DNA from: Candidatus Aenigmarchaeota archaeon LH_S7
GTDB taxonomy: Archaea > Aenigmatarchaeota > Aenigmatarchaeia > QMZS01
Direction of reading: 5' to 3'
Assembly (NCBI GenBank): GCA_023659895.1
Contig: JAGXOL010000002.1
Location: 4,388-68,387, forward strand
Length of the DNA stretch: 64,000 bases
The notes under the pieces: model-generated
What the model was told of the DNA's origin: nothing
What the model saw: the letters and a program-made list of their open reading frames with translations, nothing else
Databases searched by the model: none
Part shown: positions 1,304-48,771 of the stretch, one piece after another
How the letters are laid out: each line of letters starts with the position of its first letter
How positions within the stretch are numbered: the first letter of the stretch is position 1
Made by a program: the position numbers and the translations under genes

Positions 1304-1441
1304 GGGCCTGTAGTTCAATCTGGCAGAACGCTGCCCTTGCAAGGCAGAGGCTGTGGGTTCAAAGGGAACTTTTAGAAAAAGTTCCAAAGAAAGGTCTACC
1401 AACTCCAAAAGAAAAATGATACGAAAATCCCACCGGGTCCA
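1304..1441 (+). tRNA. tRNA-Ala(UGC) with a 64-nt intron in the T-loop (59/60; intron 1364-1427)
   Basis: The exons fold as acceptor GGGCCTG/CGGGTCC with the G3:U70 Ala identity pair, D stem GTTC/GAAC, anticodon arm CTGCC-CTTGCAA-GGCAG and T stem GTGGG/CCCAC, with the TTCAAA|T loop interrupted. CCA is not encoded. Confidence 0.85.
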
Positions 1442-2481: not shown

Positions 2482-4136
2482 TTAGAACTTTTCTTATATA
2501 GGTTCTCAATTCTATTTAAAGTATCTACTTCTTCCACGCTTTTGTCCTCTCTTATTCTGATCAGTTTTGGGAACCTTAGTGCATAACCACTCTCATAGGT
2601 AGGGGATTTCTGTATTTCCTGATAGCCTGTCTCAACAACAACTTTTGGTTTTATCCTAACTTTGTTCTCTTTTTCAAATTCAATTAAGGGTTTTAATGTT
2701 TTGGTCATCTCCTTGAACTGCTCATCTGTTAAACCAGTCCCCATCTTTCCAATCCCTAATAATTCTCCTGTTTCCTCATCTCTAGCAGCTAGAATAAAAG
2801 AAGCGAGCCAATTTGCTCTTCTTCCCTGTCCCCATTCAGCTCCAACCACAACCAAGTCCAAGGTTTCCTCTTCTGGTTTTACTTTGTACATGTACCCAAC
2901 TCTTTTCCCTGGTTGGTAAGGTGCATCCAAGTTTTTAACCATTATTCCCTCTTGTCCCAAATCCAAGGCCTCGTTGTAGAATTTCTCTACTTTTTCAACA
3001 TCTTTAGTAACCAACTGCTCAGCTAGTTGAAATTTTCCTTTTTCCTGGGAGATAATTTCTTCCAGTTTTTTCCTCCTTTTTGAGAACTTCTCATCAAGTA
3101 ATTGCTTCCTGTCTACAAGAAGACAATCAAACAAGTTTACTTGCACTGGTATCTCCTGTGACATTTTCCTGATGTTATACTTTCTTTGGATTCTTTTGCT
3201 GAGTTCCTGGAAAGGTAAGAGTTTTCCATCTCTAATTGCAACTGCTTCTCCCTCAAGAATTGACTTTTCCACTTTAATATTTTTCTTGCAGAGCTCAACA
3301 ATATCAGGGAATTGCTTTGTAACATTTTCCAATCTTCTGGTAAAGACCCATATTTTTTCTCCCTCCTTTTGGGTTAAGATGCGGGTTCCATCATACTTGT
3401 ATTCTATAGCTGGGTTCTTAGCATCTTCCAAAGCTTTTTCCAGGTTTTCGGATTTTTCAGCAAGCATTGCTTTTGTTGGAGTTCCAATTTCCAAGCTTAT
3501 TTTTTTCAATCCTTTGTCCCCATCATTTTTTGCTATCTTTGCAACTCTTCCAAAATCAGTAATTAAATTGTAATCTCTTTCAACTAGCTCTTTGTCAACT
3601 TCAAAAGCTTTTGATGTTGCATCTCTCAAGATTCCCTCCGCAGTGCCCAATCTTAGCTCTCCAAGAATTGTTCTAATAACATATCTTGCCTCTGAAGGTT
3701 CCGCTGAGTTGAGTAGTTCAAGAATGTTGTTGATTTTTCTTTCTTGGGAGTTCTTTCCAGTATATTTCGCGATTTCTCTTATAGATTCGTAAACCTTTTT
3801 TATTTTTAAACTTTTCTTGAAAAGAATTGATTGTTTCTTTTTTTTGGCTATTTCCTGGGCAACCAAACCTAAATCACCACTATCTTTGAACTTGTCCATT
3901 ATCTCCTTTTTAGAATAACCTAATTTTGTTAGGGCAAGTATAACTAGATTATCTGCAATTCCTAGATCTTCTTCTTCACTTTCAGAGAAGATTTTTCCTC
4001 TCAACAAAGGCATTACAATTTTTAATTCCTCACCATTGAGGTCTTTAATAAAGTTTGCAATAATATCAGTTTTCTCAAGTTTTTTTGTTGTACTTCCAAC
4101 CTTATCATAAACATCAACCAAAGTTTTGTATTTCAT
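2478..4136 (-). CDS. lig: ATP-dependent DNA ligase
   Basis: It has the adenylation motif EYKYDGTR (KxDG), an OB-fold C-terminus and a length of 552 aa. Confidence 0.95.
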   Translation of the reverse strand: MKYKTLVDVYDKVGSTTKKLEKTDIIANFIKDLNGEELKIVMPLLRGKIFSESEEEDLGIADNLVILALTKLGYSKKEIMDKFKDSGDLGLVAQEIAKKKKQSILFKKSLKIKKVYESIREIAKYTGKNSQERKINNILELLNSAEPSEARYVIRTILGELRLGTAEGILRDATSKAFEVDKELVERDYNLITDFGRVAKIAKNDGDKGLKKISLEIGTPTKAMLAEKSENLEKALEDAKNPAIEYKYDGTRILTQKEGEKIWVFTRRLENVTKQFPDIVELCKKNIKVEKSILEGEAVAIRDGKLLPFQELSKRIQRKYNIRKMSQEIPVQVNLFDCLLVDRKQLLDEKFSKRRKKLEEIISQEKGKFQLAEQLVTKDVEKVEKFYNEALDLGQEGIMVKNLDAPYQPGKRVGYMYKVKPEEETLDLVVVGAEWGQGRRANWLASFILAARDEETGELLGIGKMGTGLTDEQFKEMTKTLKPLIEFEKENKVRIKPKVVVETGYQEIQKSPTYESGYALRFPKLIRIREDKSVEEVDTLNRIENLYKKSSN

Positions 4137-4164: not shown

Positions 4165-5241
4165 ATGGAGGTCAAAAAAAGGGTTGAGAAGATTCTGGAA
4201 AAATATAATATTTGTGATACTTGCTTAGGGAGACAATTTCATGGTCTCTATCCTGAAAAAAGTAATAAAGAAATCGGGGAAAAGTTGAAATATGATTTTG
4301 ATTATAGAAAGAAAAAAGAATGTTATTTTTGTGGAGGTTTTTTTGAGAATTTTGAGAAAGAATTAAAAAAAATTGAGAGGGAATTAAAAAAATATGAATT
4401 TCATACGTTCCTAGTTGGTTCTGAGTTTCCCAGAAAAATGATTCAAAGAGAGGAAAAACTTTGGGAGGAAAATGGGGTTGACCTTTGTGAGGCAATAAAA
4501 ACAAATTTGAATAGAGAAGTTGGATTGGAATTGAGAAAAAGATTGGGAAAAGAAGTGGATTTTGAGATTCCTGATGTAATGGTTATTGTTGATTTAATTA
4601 AAAATAAAACTATAGTGCAAGCATCTCCTTTGTATGTTGAAGGAACTTATAAAAAAATTCTTCCTAGAAGTAAAATCCAAAAAACAATAGAAAGTAATTT
4701 TTTGAGAAAAAGTAAGAGTGAGAAGGTAATATTTTATTCTGCTGGGAGGATGGAAGAGAATGTTGTCACTTCATTTTACAAAGACTTTCTTGTTAAGTTG
4801 AAAGCTCCTAGAAAAAGGAGATTAAATTTGAGAGAGCTGGAAAGGAAAATAAACCAAAACAAATCGGTTAAGGTAAAGGATTTAGGATATTCAAAGAAAA
4901 AGAAGATTGAAGATCTTAAAAGCAGGCATTTGGTTTCTTATTCAGTTGTTCTAAAATTTGGTAAATTAGATGGAGAAAAGAAAGAGATTGCAGATAGTTT
5001 AAGAAAATTGGAGAACAAAAAAGTGCACCAGGAACTAAAAAACAAAATCAGGAAGCCTAAAATCAGTAAATTAGAAAGAAAATTTGAAGATAAAAAATTA
5101 AAGTTAAATTTGGAAAGCACAGAAAATTTCTCAATTAATGATTTCCTGGACAAGAGTAAGCCTAACTTGAAGGATACAATAGGGGAGGAATTTAAAGTTA
5201 AAGAGATTGTGATGAAAAGTTGCAGAAAATTAAAGAAATAA
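4165..5241 (+). CDS. Pus10-like tRNA pseudouridine synthase (divergent)
   Basis: The N-terminus has zinc-ribbon cysteines CDTC..CYFCGG. The region SAGRMEENVV..LKAPRKRR aligns by eye to the Pus10 GREDxDxRMLG..P.KR block. The ATG at 4165 is preferred over the GTG at 4147. Confidence 0.6.
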   Translation: MEVKKRVEKILEKYNICDTCLGRQFHGLYPEKSNKEIGEKLKYDFDYRKKKECYFCGGFFENFEKELKKIERELKKYEFHTFLVGSEFPRKMIQREEKLWEENGVDLCEAIKTNLNREVGLELRKRLGKEVDFEIPDVMVIVDLIKNKTIVQASPLYVEGTYKKILPRSKIQKTIESNFLRKSKSEKVIFYSAGRMEENVVTSFYKDFLVKLKAPRKRRLNLRELERKINQNKSVKVKDLGYSKKKKIEDLKSRHLVSYSVVLKFGKLDGEKKEIADSLRKLENKKVHQELKNKIRKPKISKLERKFEDKKLKLNLESTENFSINDFLDKSKPNLKDTIGEEFKVKEIVMKSCRKLKK

Positions 5242-14767: not shown

Positions 14768-15774
14768 GGTGTGCGAAATAAAATAACCAACTAATCAACT
14801 CTCTACAGGAAGCCTAATTTCGCACACTTACTTCACTAAAGAGACCAGTTCCACCTTACTATTTTAGATTCTAAATCTGCTAAACTCCCTGAGACTTGTT
14901 TTGTTATTGATAATGCTGTCAACAGCAGTGAGCAATATTGCACTCAATGAAGCAAAAACAACAGATATTTTTCTTTTAATTCCAACAACATTCTGCCAAC
15001 ATTTATCCATTGAGTTTTTGATAACTGAATTGAACTGCTCAACAATATATCTCTTTTTCTTCAGTATTTTTGGAGTCCAACGTCTTTTCTTGGTGTTCCT
15101 CCTGTTTTTTGCAATTACTGGTTTTGCCCCTTTCTCTCTACAAGCTTTTCTATTGGCCTCTGAATCATAACCAGCATCTGCTAAAGCAAGTTTACCTGAG
15201 ACCAATAACTCTGGTAAGAAAGGGGAATCATGTTTGTTTCCTGTTGTTAAAATTGCCTTTAGAGGCAATCCAAGTTGGTTTACAGAAAGATGTGTTTTAA
15301 ATCCTTTGAATGCTCCTCTCGAGTAAAAACCAACTTTGGTATCTGGATCTTCTTCATCCACCAAAGGAGTTGAGTCTATTATCAATAGTTCTGTTGGAAT
15401 AATCATCTGAATTATTGATGACAATTTGTTGAATACTTGTGTTACTAGATCAGAATATGTTTTCTTCCAGACACTAAGTCTTGACCTGTCTGGAACTCCT
15501 GTTAATCCAAGGCTTCTTCTTATTTTTGGATTCATTCGTTGCTTCACAACGATGCACCGTTTTGCTTCGCAAAACGAGTGTGCTTTTAAATGTCTGATTA
15601 ACTGGCAATCATTGAATCCTCTAATTTTCTGGTAAATTAAAGTTCTTGTTCTTGGTACATTTCTATATCCTCTTCTACCTCTGCCTTTCTGAGATGGAAC
15701 CATCCCTTTGTTTACCAAATGTCTTATAATATTACCTGCTTCCATCTATTAATTTGGTTTATTTCGCACACCCC
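14768..15774 (-). mobile_element. IS4/IS5-superfamily insertion sequence, copy 1
   Basis: It has terminal inverted repeats GGTGTGCGAAATAAA at both ends, plus a third internal copy of GTGTGCGAAAT near the 3' end. TTTATATAT-like sequence is present on both flanks. Confidence 0.85.
14864..15745 (-). CDS. DDE transposase (DDE_Tnp_1, IS4/IS5 type), 293 aa, with a 16-aa insert
   Basis: It has the motifs IIDSTPL, ADAGYDS and RYIVEQFNSVIKN. It is about 90% identical to the copy at 42185-43018, apart from the HSFCEAKRCIVVKQRM insert. Confidence 0.9.
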   Translation of the reverse strand: MEAGNIIRHLVNKGMVPSQKGRGRRGYRNVPRTRTLIYQKIRGFNDCQLIRHLKAHSFCEAKRCIVVKQRMNPKIRRSLGLTGVPDRSRLSVWKKTYSDLVTQVFNKLSSIIQMIIPTELLIIDSTPLVDEEDPDTKVGFYSRGAFKGFKTHLSVNQLGLPLKAILTTGNKHDSPFLPELLVSGKLALADAGYDSEANRKACREKGAKPVIAKNRRNTKKRRWTPKILKKKRYIVEQFNSVIKNSMDKCWQNVVGIKRKISVVFASLSAILLTAVDSIINNKTSLREFSRFRI

Positions 15775-23310: not shown

Positions 23311-23558
23311 GGGCATGTAGCTCAGCTGGATAGAGCACCGGCCTTCTAAGGAACCGAGGAAAGCCGGGGGTCGCAGGTTCGAAGGGAACTTTTAGAAAAA
23401 GTTCCATCAAAAAAAGAAGGGAACTTTTAGAAAAAGTTCCATCAAAAAAAGAAGGGAACTTTTAGAAACCTCGAAAAACAAAGTTTTTCGGGGCCCCATA
23501 AACCTTTGGTTTATGAGGAAGTTCCATCAAAAAAGTCTCGGGAATCCTGTCATGCCCA
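23311..23558 (+). tRNA. tRNA-Arg(UCU) with two introns (13 nt at 37/38, 23349-23361; 161 nt at 59/60, 23384-23544)
   Basis: The exons fold as acceptor GGGCATG/CATGCCC, D stem GCTC/GAGC, anticodon arm CCGGC-CTTCTAA-GCCGG and T stem GCAGG/CCTGT around TTCGAA|T. Confidence 0.85.
23384..23535 (+). repeat. Tandem 35-nt repeat inside the tRNA-Arg T-loop intron (2 exact units + 1 expanded unit)
   Basis: The unit GGGAACTTTTAGAAAAAGTTCCATCAAAAAAAGAA occurs at 23384-23418 and 23419-23453. The third unit starts at 23454 and has its hairpin loop replaced by two nested hairpins (23469-23493 and 23497-23515). Confidence 0.9.
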
Positions 23559-36076: not shown

Positions 36077-36793
36077 ATGGATCACAGATTCTATGACCTG
36101 CATGTCAGGTTCTCGGAAAATTGGGAAGAGATCATTAAAAGAGCTGAGTATATAGGTTTGAGTGGGGTTTGCTTGGTTGTTAGTTCAAAGGAAGATTTGA
36201 GAAATTATTTTAATGTAGTTAAGGAAATTAAAAAAAACACTAGCTTGGATGTTGTTGAAGGTATTCTAATTGAAGAAGAAAATGATAATATAGTTAAGTT
36301 TGCGAAAAAATACAGGAAAGAGTTTGAATTAGTTTTGGTTAAAGGGGGTGATTACGAAATTAACAGGAGTGCTTGCTCCTGCGAGTATGTGGATATTTTA
36401 TCTGTGCCAGGACAGGGTAGGAAGGATTCTGGTATAGATCATATTTGTCTGAGAGATGCTAAGGAGAAAGGGGTTCTGATAGAACTTAAATTCAATGAAC
36501 TTTTGAGGGCTCAGGGAATGGATAAGATTAGGGAAATAAAAAAGATGAAAGAGATTATAAGATTGTGTACTAAAATGAAAGCACATTTCATTGTGAATTC
36601 TGGTGCTGAGAATAAATGGGAACTAAGGCAAGGACGTGATCTATCTTCTTTAAGTTACTGCTTGGGTGCGAATCAGGAAGAAGCATTGTATTCGGATTAT
36701 GCAGAAAAATTAATCCAAAAAAACAGGGAGAAAATTTCTCAGCCTTTGAAAGGTGTTGAAATAAGAGGTGATTTGAAAGATTATGAGAGATAG
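36077..36793 (+). CDS. rnp3: RNase P protein component 3 (Rpp30)
   Basis: It has an N-terminal FYDLHVR, a TIM/PHP-like pattern and the conserved pairing with Pop5 downstream. Confidence 0.75.
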   Translation: MDHRFYDLHVRFSENWEEIIKRAEYIGLSGVCLVVSSKEDLRNYFNVVKEIKKNTSLDVVEGILIEEENDNIVKFAKKYRKEFELVLVKGGDYEINRSACSCEYVDILSVPGQGRKDSGIDHICLRDAKEKGVLIELKFNELLRAQGMDKIREIKKMKEIIRLCTKMKAHFIVNSGAENKWELRQGRDLSSLSYCLGANQEEALYSDYAEKLIQKNREKISQPLKGVEIRGDLKDYER

Positions 36794-37139
36794 ACCTAAA
36801 ACTTTGCCTTTATCATACAGGGAAAAAAAGAGATATATTACTTTTGAAATTCTTTCAGATAACAAGATAGAGATTGAGGAACTAATAAAATCTGTTTGGA
36901 GTCAAACAATTAATTTTATTGGTGTGTTAGGTGTTGCAAGAACTAATCTGAAGTTCCTGAATGATATATACGACGAAAGAAAGCAGAGGTTTGTTGTTAG
37001 GTGTTCACCTAAAGATGTTGAGTTTGTTAGGTTGGCTCTTGCATTGGTTAGTGAGATAAATGAGAAGAGGGTTGTTTTGAGGAGCTTGGGTGTAACTGGA
37101 ACATTGAAGTCTGCTAAGATTAAGTATTTTGGTTCATAG
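36783..37139 (+). CDS. rnp2: RNase P protein component 2 (Pop5)
   Basis: It has the LPLSYREKKRYITFEI signature and overlaps rnp3. Confidence 0.75.
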   Translation: MRDRPKTLPLSYREKKRYITFEILSDNKIEIEELIKSVWSQTINFIGVLGVARTNLKFLNDIYDERKQRFVVRCSPKDVEFVRLALALVSEINEKRVVLRSLGVTGTLKSAKIKYFGS

Positions 37140-40909: not shown

Positions 40910-41734
40910 TTAGCAATGACCCTTGTACCTGTGCTCCAAGACTATCTCCCCAAAAGAGTTTATTAAATAAACAATGTCACCTTCACAATCATTGTTCCAA
41001 ACAGCACTGCAACCTTTTCCTGAATGGTTCCAGTATAACTCGTTTTTTGTGTTCTCACCAGCTCCTGTATAAATAGTTAACTTGCCATAAGGCTCAAGCT
41101 CTGATTTTGGTAGTAAATAAGAATTGTCATCACTGTCTTGAATCTTCCACTTTGTTAAATCACATGAAATGTTACAGAAATTCTTGAAAACAACATATTC
41201 ATCATTCAAGTTATAGCAATCATTATCATTTGCATCCCAATTAATATAAGAAATTCCTATACAAGTATCATCGCATTTTTCCTTTACTCCGCAAAGGTTA
41301 ATATCTTCTTTCAAGCAGTTCTGCCAAGCCTCTTGTATCTCTGATTTATGCTTAAGGTTTTCCAGGATATAGGGTTTTGCATAACCTTCCCTAACCAATT
41401 TGATGTTAACCATTTCTCCATCTACGTAAACATATCTCAACCATCTCCCATACTTGTCTTTATCCTTAAAGTCCTTCTTCAAAATTACTTTTTTATTGCC
41501 AATTAATTCCTTCAACCTATCTTTTGCTTCCTCATAATATTCCTGTCCCTTTTCCGGAGAATTTATTCCCAACAATCTAACATACTCACCATTTTCCAGT
41601 CTTATTGTGTCACCATCCACAACATTTACAATCTTAAATTTCTCTTCTGAGGTCAGGAACAAAAATGATAAAACTAAAGTTGCTAGGATTGCTATGGAAG
41701 CGAAAATCAAATAATTTCTTTTTTTCTTCTTCAT
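40910..41734 (-). CDS. Secreted staphylococcal-nuclease (SNase)-like nuclease fused to a lamin-tail-like domain
   Basis: A TM/signal is followed by VVDGDTIRL..VRLLGINSPE..RYVY. The C-terminal EYVVFKN..WKIQD..LTIYTGAG resembles an LTD. Confidence 0.75.
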   Translation of the reverse strand: MKKKKRNYLIFASIAILATLVLSFLFLTSEEKFKIVNVVDGDTIRLENGEYVRLLGINSPEKGQEYYEEAKDRLKELIGNKKVILKKDFKDKDKYGRWLRYVYVDGEMVNIKLVREGYAKPYILENLKHKSEIQEAWQNCLKEDINLCGVKEKCDDTCIGISYINWDANDNDCYNLNDEYVVFKNFCNISCDLTKWKIQDSDDNSYLLPKSELEPYGKLTIYTGAGENTKNELYWNHSGKGCSAVWNNDCEGDIVYLINSFGEIVLEHRYKGHC

Positions 41735-42155: not shown

Positions 42156-43116
42156 GGGGTGTGTGAAATAAACCAAATTAATAGATGGAAGCAGGTAATA
42201 TTATAAGACATTTGGTAAACAAAGGGATGGTTCCATCTCAGAAAGGCAGAGGTAGAAGAGGATATAGAAATGTACCAAGAACAAGAACTTTAATTTACCA
42301 GAAAATTAGAGGATTCAATGATTGCCAGTTAATCAGACATTTAAAAGCAAATCCAAAAGTTAGAAGAAGCCTTGGATTAACAGGAGTTCCAGACAGGTCA
42401 AGACTCAGTGTCTGGAAGAATCTATATTCGGATCTTGTGATAACTGCCTTCAACAAATTGTCATCAATAATCCAGATGATAATTCCAACAGACATGTTAG
42501 TTGCGGATTCAACTCCTTTAGTGGATGAAGAAGATCCAGATGCAAAAGTTGGTTTTAATTCAAGAGGGGCATTCAAAGGATTTAAAACACATCTTTCTGT
42601 AAACCATCTTGGATTGCCTCTAAAGGCAATTTTAACAACAGGCAATAAACATGATTCCCCTTTCTTACCAGAGTTATTGGTCTCAGGTAAACTTGCTTTA
42701 GCAGATGCTGGTTATGATTCAGAGGCCAATAGAAAAGCTTGTAGAGAGAAAGGGGCAAAACCAGTAATTGCAAAAAACAGGAGGAACACCAAGAAAAGAC
42801 GTTGGACTCCAAAAATACTGAAGAAAAAGAGATATATTGTTGAGCAGTTCAATTCAATTATCAAGAACTCAATGGATAAATGTTGGCAGAAGGTTAGAGG
42901 AATCATAAGAAAAACATCTGTTGTTTTTGCTTCATTGAGTGCAATATTGCTCACTGCTATTGACAGTATTATCAATAACAAAACAAGTCTCAGGGAATTC
43001 AGCAGATTTAGAATCTAAAATAGTAAGGTGGAAATTATCTCTTTAGTGGGAGCATGTGTGCGAAATTAGGCTTCCTGTAGAGAGTTGATTAGTTGGTTAT
43101 TTTATTTCGCACACCC
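42156..43116 (+). mobile_element. IS4/IS5-superfamily insertion sequence, copy 2
   Basis: It has the same termini as copy 1 (GGGGTGTGTGAAATAAACC ... TTATTTCGCACACCC). It is flanked by AAAAATAGTAT on both sides. Confidence 0.85.
42185..43018 (+). CDS. DDE transposase (IS4/IS5 type), 277 aa
   Basis: It has VADSTPL, ADAGYDS and RYIVEQFNSIIKN. Confidence 0.9.
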   Translation: MEAGNIIRHLVNKGMVPSQKGRGRRGYRNVPRTRTLIYQKIRGFNDCQLIRHLKANPKVRRSLGLTGVPDRSRLSVWKNLYSDLVITAFNKLSSIIQMIIPTDMLVADSTPLVDEEDPDAKVGFNSRGAFKGFKTHLSVNHLGLPLKAILTTGNKHDSPFLPELLVSGKLALADAGYDSEANRKACREKGAKPVIAKNRRNTKKRRWTPKILKKKRYIVEQFNSIIKNSMDKCWQKVRGIIRKTSVVFASLSAILLTAIDSIINNKTSLREFSRFRI

Positions 43117-47649: not shown

Positions 47650-47856
47650 CGCCTCGGGGAGGATTCTCGAACTTCAATGAGGGAATGCGTTGAAAGGAAG
47701 AAATGTGTTCTCCCTTTTAACCTCGAACCTCCGACCTCATGGTTTCTGCAGGTATATAACAGCTTCGCCCGGAACCTTCTTTTTAATCAGGTTTTGACTG
47801 GAAGCGGAAGCTCCAAAAGATTCCGACATGCGCTCTACCTGCTGAGCTACCGAGGC
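47650..47856 (-). tRNA. tRNA-Asn(GUU) with three introns (47764-47826 at 30/31; 47744-47756 at 37/38; about 47664-47721 at 59/60)
   Basis: Four exons (30+7+22+14 = 73 nt) assemble into acceptor GCCTCGG/CCGAGGC, D stem GCTC/GAGC, anticodon arm CATGG-CTGTTAA-CCATG, T stem GGAGG/CCTCC and discriminator G. Confidence 0.8.
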
Positions 47857-47885
47857 ATATATTAATAACAAATTAATTTTAATTA
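47857..47885 (-). promoter_or_regulatory. AT-rich promoter block upstream of tRNA-Asn, duplicated at 48716-48762
   Basis: ATATATTAATAACAAATTAATTTTAATTA (plus strand) directly abuts the tRNA 5' end. TATA-like TTAAAATTAA lies about 20-29 nt upstream. Confidence 0.5.
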
Positions 47886-47905
47886 TTTTTTGTTTTGAGG
47901 AATAT

Positions 47906-48487
47906 TCAAAATCCCCTGTGTTCTTTGTTATATTTTTTCTTAGCTTCTTCAAAATTTTGTAAGTTTAAACTAATTAATACTTTCTGATAAATTCTATCTA
48001 TCTCTTTATGCAATTCTATTGTATCTTTATATTTCTTTGTCAAGTTATTATGAATTAATTCATGAATCAAAATAAGTAAAAGGAGTTTATGATCTTCTTT
48101 ATAACTTAATGTTAGGGGATCTGAAAAAGAGTTTATTTTCCCAAAAACAATATAAACAGGGATATATTCTCTTTCCCAAGGCTTGTTGTTAGAAGCAATT
48201 AATTCTAAAATTTCTTGAACATAATTTTTAAATAAATTTATAAATGGATAACTATCTTTTTTTAATTTAATGAAATCTTGAGAACTAAAAGAAGGGTTAA
48301 AGCTTTTATTATAAATAAATGAGAATCTTATTTCTGTTTTTGGTATCATATATTTACCTGTAAACTCTTTCTTAAAAATGTTTTGATAAACACCTTTCTT
48401 CATTATTTCTGTTTTTTCCTCTTTACTTAACTTTCTGTGTTCTGGATCCAAAACATGTTTTTCCACTTCAAGATCCTTCTTTGCCAT
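47906..48487 (-). CDS. Hypothetical protein with HExxH motif
   Basis: This is a 193-aa ORF. LLILIHELIHNN suggests a zinc-metallopeptidase-like site. Confidence 0.5.
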   Translation of the reverse strand: MAKKDLEVEKHVLDPEHRKLSKEEKTEIMKKGVYQNIFKKEFTGKYMIPKTEIRFSFIYNKSFNPSFSSQDFIKLKKDSYPFINLFKNYVQEILELIASNNKPWEREYIPVYIVFGKINSFSDPLTLSYKEDHKLLLLILIHELIHNNLTKKYKDTIELHKEIDRIYQKVLISLNLQNFEEAKKKYNKEHRGF

Positions 48488-48561
48488 AATATTCTTTGTT
48501 AAAAACTTTCTTCTTTTGGATCAAACCTTCCTTTTTTGCTCAAGCTTTTTTAAAAGCTTGT

Positions 48562-48715
48562 TTTGATGGAACTTCCTCATAAACCGAAGGTTTATGGGGC
48601 CCCGAAAAACAAAGTTTTTCGAGGTTTTTAAAAGTTCCCTTCTTTTTTTGCTGGAACTTTTTTCTAAAAAGCTCATTCGAACCCGCGACTTTCAGGTGTC
48701 TTCTTTCATAGAGGC
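48562..48715 (-). other. Orphan tRNA-like 5' fragment fused to the intron hairpin module (split-tRNA half or pseudogene)
   Basis: The minus strand reads GCCTCTATGAAAGAAGACACCTGAAAGTCGCGGGTTCGAA. It continues with a degenerate repeat unit and the two-hairpin module seen in the tRNA-Arg intron. No CCCGC/acceptor 3' exon follows. Confidence 0.5.
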
Positions 48716-48762
48716 ATATATTATTTACCCTCAAAACTTTAATAACAAATTAATTTTAATTA
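48716..48762 (-). promoter_or_regulatory. Second copy of the tRNA-Asn promoter block (with a 17-nt insertion)
   Basis: The sequence is ATATATTA[TTTACCCTCAAAACTTT]AATAACAAATTAATTTTAATTA. The first five transcribed nt (GCCTC) are also shared with tRNA-Asn. Confidence 0.5.
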
Positions 48763-48771
48763 ATTTCAAAA

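Follow-up and report, generated by a model that had tools for sequence, protein, structure and literature searches.

Archaeal tRNA genes contain up to three introns, and the highest intron loads are found in Thermoproteales (PMC8450103, PMC4033280, PMC3239211), with 71 introns in 46 tRNA genes in P. calidifontis (PMC8450103). The motif recognised by archaeal EndA, a 3-4-3 hBHBh' structure, consists of two 3-nt bulges around a 4-bp helix and is cut after the second nucleotide of each bulge, while relaxed hBH and HBh' forms are tolerated by broad-specificity enzymes (PMC3239211, PMC4090602). In Thermoproteales, the presence of similar introns in different tRNAs reflects intron transposition (PMC4090602, PMC4033280), and introns lying close to each other in archaeal tRNAs possibly have to be removed sequentially (PMC8450103). 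ARMAN-2 (Ca. Micrarchaeum acidiphilum) has a pre-tRNA-Cys with a 13-nt hBH intron at 59/60, cut in vitro by its type epsilon-2 EndA, and two T-loop introns in pre-tRNA-Pro (PMC3239211). In DPANN lineages with an L3-loop alpha-4 EndA, Kaneta et al. (2018) reported increased tRNA gene disruption, noting for Pacearchaeota, Woesearchaeota and other groups both tRNAs with multiple introns and predicted tRNA sets that are incomplete, and ascribed the gaps in these sets to undetected disrupted genes as the probable cause (PMC5829648).

Here, we describe a locus in an archaeal window (the whole 64,000-nt stretch of DNA that was analysed) that is very probably a functional tRNA-Asn(GUU) gene with three protein-spliced (BHB) introns at 30/31, 37/38 and 59/60, the splicing being predicted from sequence. 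Its features, all on the minus strand, are as follows.

47650-47856 (-): whole tRNA-Asn(GUU) gene, 207-nt precursor body with four exons and three introns
47857-47895 (-): A/T-rich upstream region, putative archaeal TATA/BRE promoter
47827-47856 (-): exon 1, 30 nt, GCCTCGGTAGCTCAGCAGGTAGAGCGCATG, tRNA positions 1-30 (acceptor 5' strand, D arm, G26 and the first 4 nt of the anticodon stem)
47764-47826 (-): intron 1, 63 nt, position 30/31 in the anticodon stem, relaxed BHB
47757-47763 (-): exon 2, 7 nt, GCTGTTA, positions 31-37, with the anticodon GTT
47744-47756 (-): intron 2, 13 nt, TATACCTGCAGAA, canonical position 37/38
47722-47743 (-): exon 3, 22 nt, ACCATGAGGTCGGAGGTTCGAG, positions 38-59 (A38, anticodon stem 3' strand, variable loop AGGTC, T stem 5' strand and TTCGAG)
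47664-47721 (-): intron 3, 58 nt, position 59/60 in the T loop, hBH-type motif
47650-47663 (-): exon 4, 14 nt, TCCTCCCCGAGGCG, positions 60-73 (T60, T stem 3' strand CCTCC, acceptor 3' strand CCGAGGC and discriminator G, with no encoded CCA)

Joined together, the exons (30 + 7 + 22 + 14 nt) form a 73-nt tRNA-Asn(GUU), which ARAGORN calls as tRNA-Asn(gtt) and which, without constraints, adopts exactly the cloverleaf as its minimum-energy fold (-32 kcal/mol, z = -3.07, with none of 200 shuffles as good). The preliminary description of this locus, made from the letters only, had proposed the same four exons forming a perfect tRNA, and it holds base for base. The stems, anticodon and discriminator G that it named are likewise those read in the sequence and in the fold: acceptor GCCTCGG/CCGAGGC, D arm GCTC/GAGC, anticodon arm CATGG-CTGTTAA-CCATG and T arm GGAGG-TTCGAGT-CCTCC. 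All 21 stem pairs and every conserved tRNA nucleotide are intact after splicing, and the nucleotides involved in tertiary contacts are present in the sequence (U8, A14, G18G19, G15:C48, G26/A44, U33, T54-A58, G53:C61 and G73). The 63-nt and 13-nt introns sit where they had been placed, with BHB geometry at their junctions, and a T-loop intron given as 'about 58 nt' is exactly 58 nt long and lies at 59/60.

How does this gene compare with the systems outlined above? Three-intron archaeal tRNAs are an already known, rare kind, and the earlier remark that they occur mainly in Thermoproteales agrees with the literature (PMC8450103, PMC4033280, PMC3239211), this one being apparently in a different lineage. 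Thermoproteales such as Pyrobaculum, Thermofilum and Caldivirga (PMC8450103, PMC4033280) share with it relaxed hBH/HBh' motifs and close introns needing sequential removal, as well as intron sequences that are similar between tRNAs (seen in the window in the T-loop introns of tRNA-Ala and tRNA-Arg, below), whereas here the host has 32.5% G+C and the introns are A/U-rich and uniformly end in AA↓N (the arrow marks the cut). With ARMAN-2, the gene has in common the 59/60 intron that uses the T stem as outer helix (hBH) and, apparently, an uncultured host outside Crenarchaeota, but it differs in having three introns in one gene, a 59/60 intron of 58 nt and an additional intron at 30/31. Like the genes thought to account for the gaps in DPANN tRNA sets, it is invisible to ARAGORN and Rfam. 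In C. merolae, too, three BHB-type introns are found in one tRNA gene, with one in the T arm, but that host is eukaryotic, the intron positions differ and some of its genes are also permuted. Finally, split and tri-split tRNAs (in Nanoarchaeum equitans and for tRNA-Gly in Caldivirga maquilingensis) are also assembled from multiple pieces with BHB-like junctions by EndA and a ligase. The pieces of split tRNAs are encoded at separate loci with their own promoters and a complementary leader or trailer, whereas the four exons here are colinear on one strand within the 207 nt of 47650-47856, and splicing would therefore occur in cis. Self-splicing can be set aside as well: group I and group II introns are several hundred nt long and have a conserved catalytic core known to Rfam models, while these introns are 63, 13 and 58 nt long and match no Rfam intron family at the gathering threshold or at E<=10. 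The novelty is thus modest, and lies in the AT-rich host (apparently not one of the Thermoproteales), in a precursor that combines three types of motif and in an exon of only 7 nt for the anticodon.

BHB geometry fits all three junctions, two of the three motifs being relaxed, as detailed below.

Intron 1: central helix CGCA/GGCG, three of four pairs (an A28.G mismatch adjoining the 5' bulge); bulges TG↓T and AA↓G; outer helix 2 bp; inner helix 11 bp
Intron 2: central helix CTGT/GCAG, four of four pairs; bulges TA↓T and AA↓A; inner helix 1 bp; after removal of intron 1, the 5-bp anticodon stem serves as outer helix
Intron 3: central helix TTCG/CGAG, four of four pairs; bulges AG↓G and AA↓T; outer helix formed by the 5-bp T stem; no inner helix

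Against 200 shuffles, the precursor has the better fold (z = -3.38), and its unconstrained minimum-energy structure contains the 3-nt 3' bulge (AAU) of intron 3, the corresponding 5' bulge being swallowed by a longer helix. Since the BHB scan used permissive criteria, its background was estimated on shuffled precursor, in which ~48 of the 17,557 possible pairs of 5' and 3' sites pass (~0.3% per site pair). The three junctions, which were specified beforehand, all fit, and this is therefore not a chance outcome. Intron 2 passes these criteria only when intron 1 has been removed.

Further support comes from relatives of this gene in metagenomes. A scan of a metagenome collection with a 24-mer corresponding to tRNA positions 7-30 (the last 24 nt of exon 1) recovered 22 loci, including 20 archaeal-type tRNA-Asn(GTT) genes that match the query exactly and lie mostly on AT-rich contigs that include 0.1-um groundwater fractions. 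Eight of these genes are uninterrupted and twelve bear introns. The spliced product is identical at 61-67 of 73 positions to uninterrupted genes (computed against five of the eight), and every exon joint corresponds to continuous sequence in uninterrupted homologues (alignment A1). BHB introns recur in the tRNA-Asn genes of relatives at 37/38 (L008, L011, L014, L017, L019, L020 and L021), 38/39 (L013 and L023) and 59/60 (L016, L017 and L024). Their geometry matches that of the window gene, and most share its AA↓N 3' bulge; an intron in L017 ends in ...GCAGAA↓A exactly as intron 2 does. In two relatives (L019 and L022), a second copy of the tRNA-Asn 3' end (AGTCCTCYCCGGKGACG) lies downstream (~100-130 nt away in L019 and likewise in L022), after an insert that starts with GGACGAGAACCGA; this looks like the att duplication expected from an element that has integrated into the tRNA gene, or else like an alternative 3' exon.

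A simple structural scan of the window revealed two other interrupted tRNA genes.

1304-1441 (+): tRNA-Ala(UGC), with G3:U70 and one 64-nt intron (1364-1427) at 59/60
23311-23558 (+): tRNA-Arg(UCU), with a 13-nt intron (23349-23361) at 37/38 and a 161-nt intron (23384-23544) at 59/60

Once spliced, both are clean tRNAs for ARAGORN, and their introns have BHB motifs, with a three-of-four central helix (TTCA/CGAA) and an AA↓T 3' bulge in tRNA-Ala, and four-of-four central helices in both tRNA-Arg introns. In unspliced form, ARAGORN misses the two genes; Rfam gives a distorted 58-nt match for tRNA-Ala (1304-1361) that skips the T arm, and misses tRNA-Arg, with a weak spurious StyR-143 match inside the 161-nt intron. 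The window therefore totals six introns in three tRNA genes, each of the three genes having one at 59/60, and AA directly precedes the 3' splice site in all six.

The T-loop introns of tRNA-Ala and tRNA-Arg open, exactly at the 5' splice site, with 23 identical nucleotides (GGGAACTTTTAGAAAAAGTTCCA) forming a hairpin, copies of which are found at 1364-1386, 23384-23406 and 23419-23441. In tRNA-Arg, these 23 nt belong to a 35-nt unit present in 2.5 tandem copies with 100% identity (array 23381-23468, identified by TRF). These repeats suggest transfer of introns between tRNA genes and expansion inside an intron. When the shared intron hairpin (GGGAACTTTTAGAAAAAGTTCC) was scanned against a genome-contig collection, the only matches were three chance ones in Clostridia MAGs, and by blastn no further copies of tRNA-Asn introns 1 and 3 turned up in the window or in any of the retrieved loci. 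There is, in addition, a 94%-identical copy at 48561-48662 (-) of a 102-nt stretch of the tRNA-Arg T-loop intron (23431-23532 (+)), outside any complete tRNA gene. This stretch, which comprises the end of one 35-nt repeat unit and two hairpins enclosed by GGGAACTT/AAGTTCC, matches no Rfam family, and the differences located between the two copies fall mostly in the loops of the two hairpins (CAAAG to CTTTG and TTTG to TTCG); a structured element that is mobile or amplified is one possibility.

Upstream of tRNA-Asn lie the following features.

48677-48715 (-): orphan tRNA-like fragment, GCCTCTATGAAAGAAGAC-ACCTGAAAGTCGCGGGTTCGAA, resembling tRNA positions 38-59
48716-48766: upstream region of the orphan fragment

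T-loop-intron-like repeats follow the orphan fragment. A 28-nt stretch upstream of tRNA-Asn (47862-47889) is duplicated ~870 nt away, within 48711-48766 (repeats D1 and D5), as is a separate piece of 18 nt that covers the tRNA's first 5 nt (GCCTC) and the adjoining upstream bases. The fragment represents either the remains of a pseudogene or one part of a split tRNA, and a search of the window for its possible partners (a 5' exon, CCCGC plus an acceptor 3' strand, or the complement of a leader) found none.

Among the rival explanations, the one that survives best, improbable as it is, is that the tRNA-Asn locus is a decaying pseudogene inactivated by its insertions (at least by the lineage-unique one at 30/31), while a conventional tRNA-Asn elsewhere does the work. 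It draws on the tRNA debris at the locus, i.e. the incomplete fragment 860 nt upstream with its duplicate of the gene's upstream region, on the mismatch in the central helix of intron 1 and on the fact that a 30/31 intron is missing from all 20 tRNA-Asn homologues recovered. However, introns at 30/31 with the geometry of intron 1 are found in apparently intact tRNA-Ile(GAT) genes, adjacent to tRNA-Asn in three relatives (L013, L018 and L023), where they have a four-of-four central helix (CAC[C/T]/GGTG) and an AA↓A bulge. This helix covaries at position 26, with A26-T in tRNA-Ile and G26-C in the window tRNA-Asn, and in L018 the combination of introns at 30/31 and 37/38 leaves a 7-nt anticodon exon (ACTGATA) just as it does here. 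Decay is also difficult to reconcile with conserved nucleotides and stem pairs that are all preserved after splicing, with insertions that each bring a separate BHB motif with the AA↓N ending typical of the lineage, and with the interruption of the other two tRNA genes in the window, which makes interruption the norm here.

A second rival, considerably less probable, keeps the gene but changes the exon model, by using either another 7-mer (e.g. GCTTCCG or GCTTCCA, with anticodon UCC) or a T-loop cut at 56/57-58/59 that would give TTCGAAT. The T-loop junction is ambiguous from sequence alone because GTTCGAG is present at both ends of intron 3, and several T-loop cuts yield tRNAs that ARAGORN accepts. 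The junction at 59/60 is settled by two observations: the uninterrupted homologues all read TTCGAG↓TCC, giving the T loop TTCGAGT, and only the 59/60 cut produces a four-of-four TTCG/CGAG central helix flanked by the T stem, other registers having 0-3 pairs, mostly G.U (checked by hand). The cut giving TTCGAAT was rejected on these grounds. As for the anticodon exon, GCTTCCG, at precursor position 46, does have three-of-four central helices on both sides, but GCTGTTA has the best motifs on both sides among the six candidate 7-mers (three of four pairs plus an 11-bp inner helix for intron 1, and four of four for intron 2), and the tRNA body, including G73, is ~90% identical to tRNA-Asn(GTT) of relatives. 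The other 7-nt exons that could be placed between exons 1 and 3, with anticodons TCC, TAA and CCG, have weaker BHB motifs. The view in the preliminary description that the anticodon is carried by a 7-nt second exon is thus upheld, and the rival anticodons it had asked about score worse.

Such a gene escapes standard tools. ARAGORN found no match at the raw locus, with intron options on or off, and neither did the Rfam tRNA model, whether the gathering threshold was applied or the cut-off was relaxed to E<=10 on a 301-nt slice, so that tRNA-Asn is detectable only after in-silico splicing. In a public gene call on an identical Logan contig (L001), the 5' half of the gene and the putative promoter region are covered by a 71-aa ORF (3570-3785, equivalent to window 47737-47952 (-)), which is almost certainly spurious. 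The idea that tRNA-like segments were assembled by chance, for which this silence and the ORF call might be invoked, is effectively refuted by four colinear segments that rebuild a 73-nt molecule so close to real tRNA-Asn genes, by 63% G+C in the spliced locus versus 32.5% for the genome and by BHB motifs at every joint. The ORF next to the gene (47906-48487) encodes a protein of 193 aa and probably has an over-extended N terminus, since its homologues have only 143-167 aa; homologues of this neighbouring protein (145-193 aa) could be found when synteny was considered, but with no adjoining tRNA-Asn. Inspection of the tRNA-Asn introns by eye identified no C/D-box sRNA (no RUGAUGA C box).

Returning to a functional three-intron tRNA-Asn, we infer from these features how the gene might be transcribed and processed, by which enzymes and in what order, in order to function in vivo. 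A single precursor of ~207 nt would be transcribed and its 5' leader trimmed by RNase P, EndA would cleave within the two 3-nt bulges around the 4-bp helix at each intron, the exons would be joined by an RtcB-type ligase and CCA would be added post-transcriptionally by a CCA-adding enzyme. The central helix of intron 1 occupies nucleotides 25-28, with an outer helix pairing 23-24 with 32-33, and the central helix of intron 2 occupies 32-35. Owing to these shared nucleotides, neither the anticodon stem nor the intron 2 central helix can form alongside the intron 1 structure. Because intron 2 acquires its full outer helix only after intron 1 has been excised, the two are probably removed sequentially in this structural model; simultaneous cutting would leave the 7-nt anticodon exon detached. 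Intron 3, with the T stem serving as outer helix, would be processed independently.

The window also encodes proteins of tRNA maturation. These are the RNase P protein subunits Rpp30 and Pop5 (36077-37139 (+)) and Pus10 (4165-5241 (+)), the archaeal pseudouridine-54/55 synthase acting on the T loop, i.e. the loop that 59/60 introns interrupt. A Pfam scan of 36 window ORFs revealed no EndA or RtcB, the other predicted ORFs having been named by eye.

Regarding the host, the window is archaeal (thermosome, L15e, aIF-1A, Rpp30, Pop5, Pus10 and 5S rRNA). A hyperthermophile of the Thermoproteales seems unlikely, judging indirectly from the low G+C content (32.5%) and from tRNA-Asn homologues that lie on AT-rich contigs, including those from 0.1-um groundwater fractions. 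Two ORFs for DDE_Tnp_1 transposases of an IS element (14864-15745 (-) and 42185-43018 (+)), in opposite orientation and 26 kb apart, have N-terminal sequence in common. At 40910-41734 (-), there is a secreted-looking protein with a staphylococcal nuclease domain and a lamin-tail domain, an architecture common in ultra-small episymbiotic archaea and bacteria, which provides a weak hint as to lifestyle and taxon. A bolder proposal, which we put forward only tentatively and regard as unlikely, is that in this AT-rich, non-Thermoproteales and possibly DPANN-like host the tRNA intron load equals or exceeds the highest one known (in the window, six introns in three genes versus 1.54 per gene in Pyrobaculum calidifontis), driven by an actively spreading and expanding T-loop intron element, with the orphan fragment and its duplicated promoter as a possible piece of a split or tri-split tRNA.

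Three-intron tRNAs represent the upper limit of known tRNA gene fragmentation, which has been tied mainly to Thermoproteales and to a broad-specificity splicing endonuclease. Finding such an extreme in an AT-rich, apparently mesophilic uncultured archaeon supports an independent escalation of tRNA disruption in several archaeal lineages. The gene would also offer a set of substrates for the EndA of that lineage, since a single precursor combines strict, HBh'-like and hBH motifs with a 7-nt exon that would force ordered splicing. On a practical level, genes that are invisible to ARAGORN and Rfam, and are overwritten by spurious ORFs, make genomes of such lineages seem to lack essential tRNAs.
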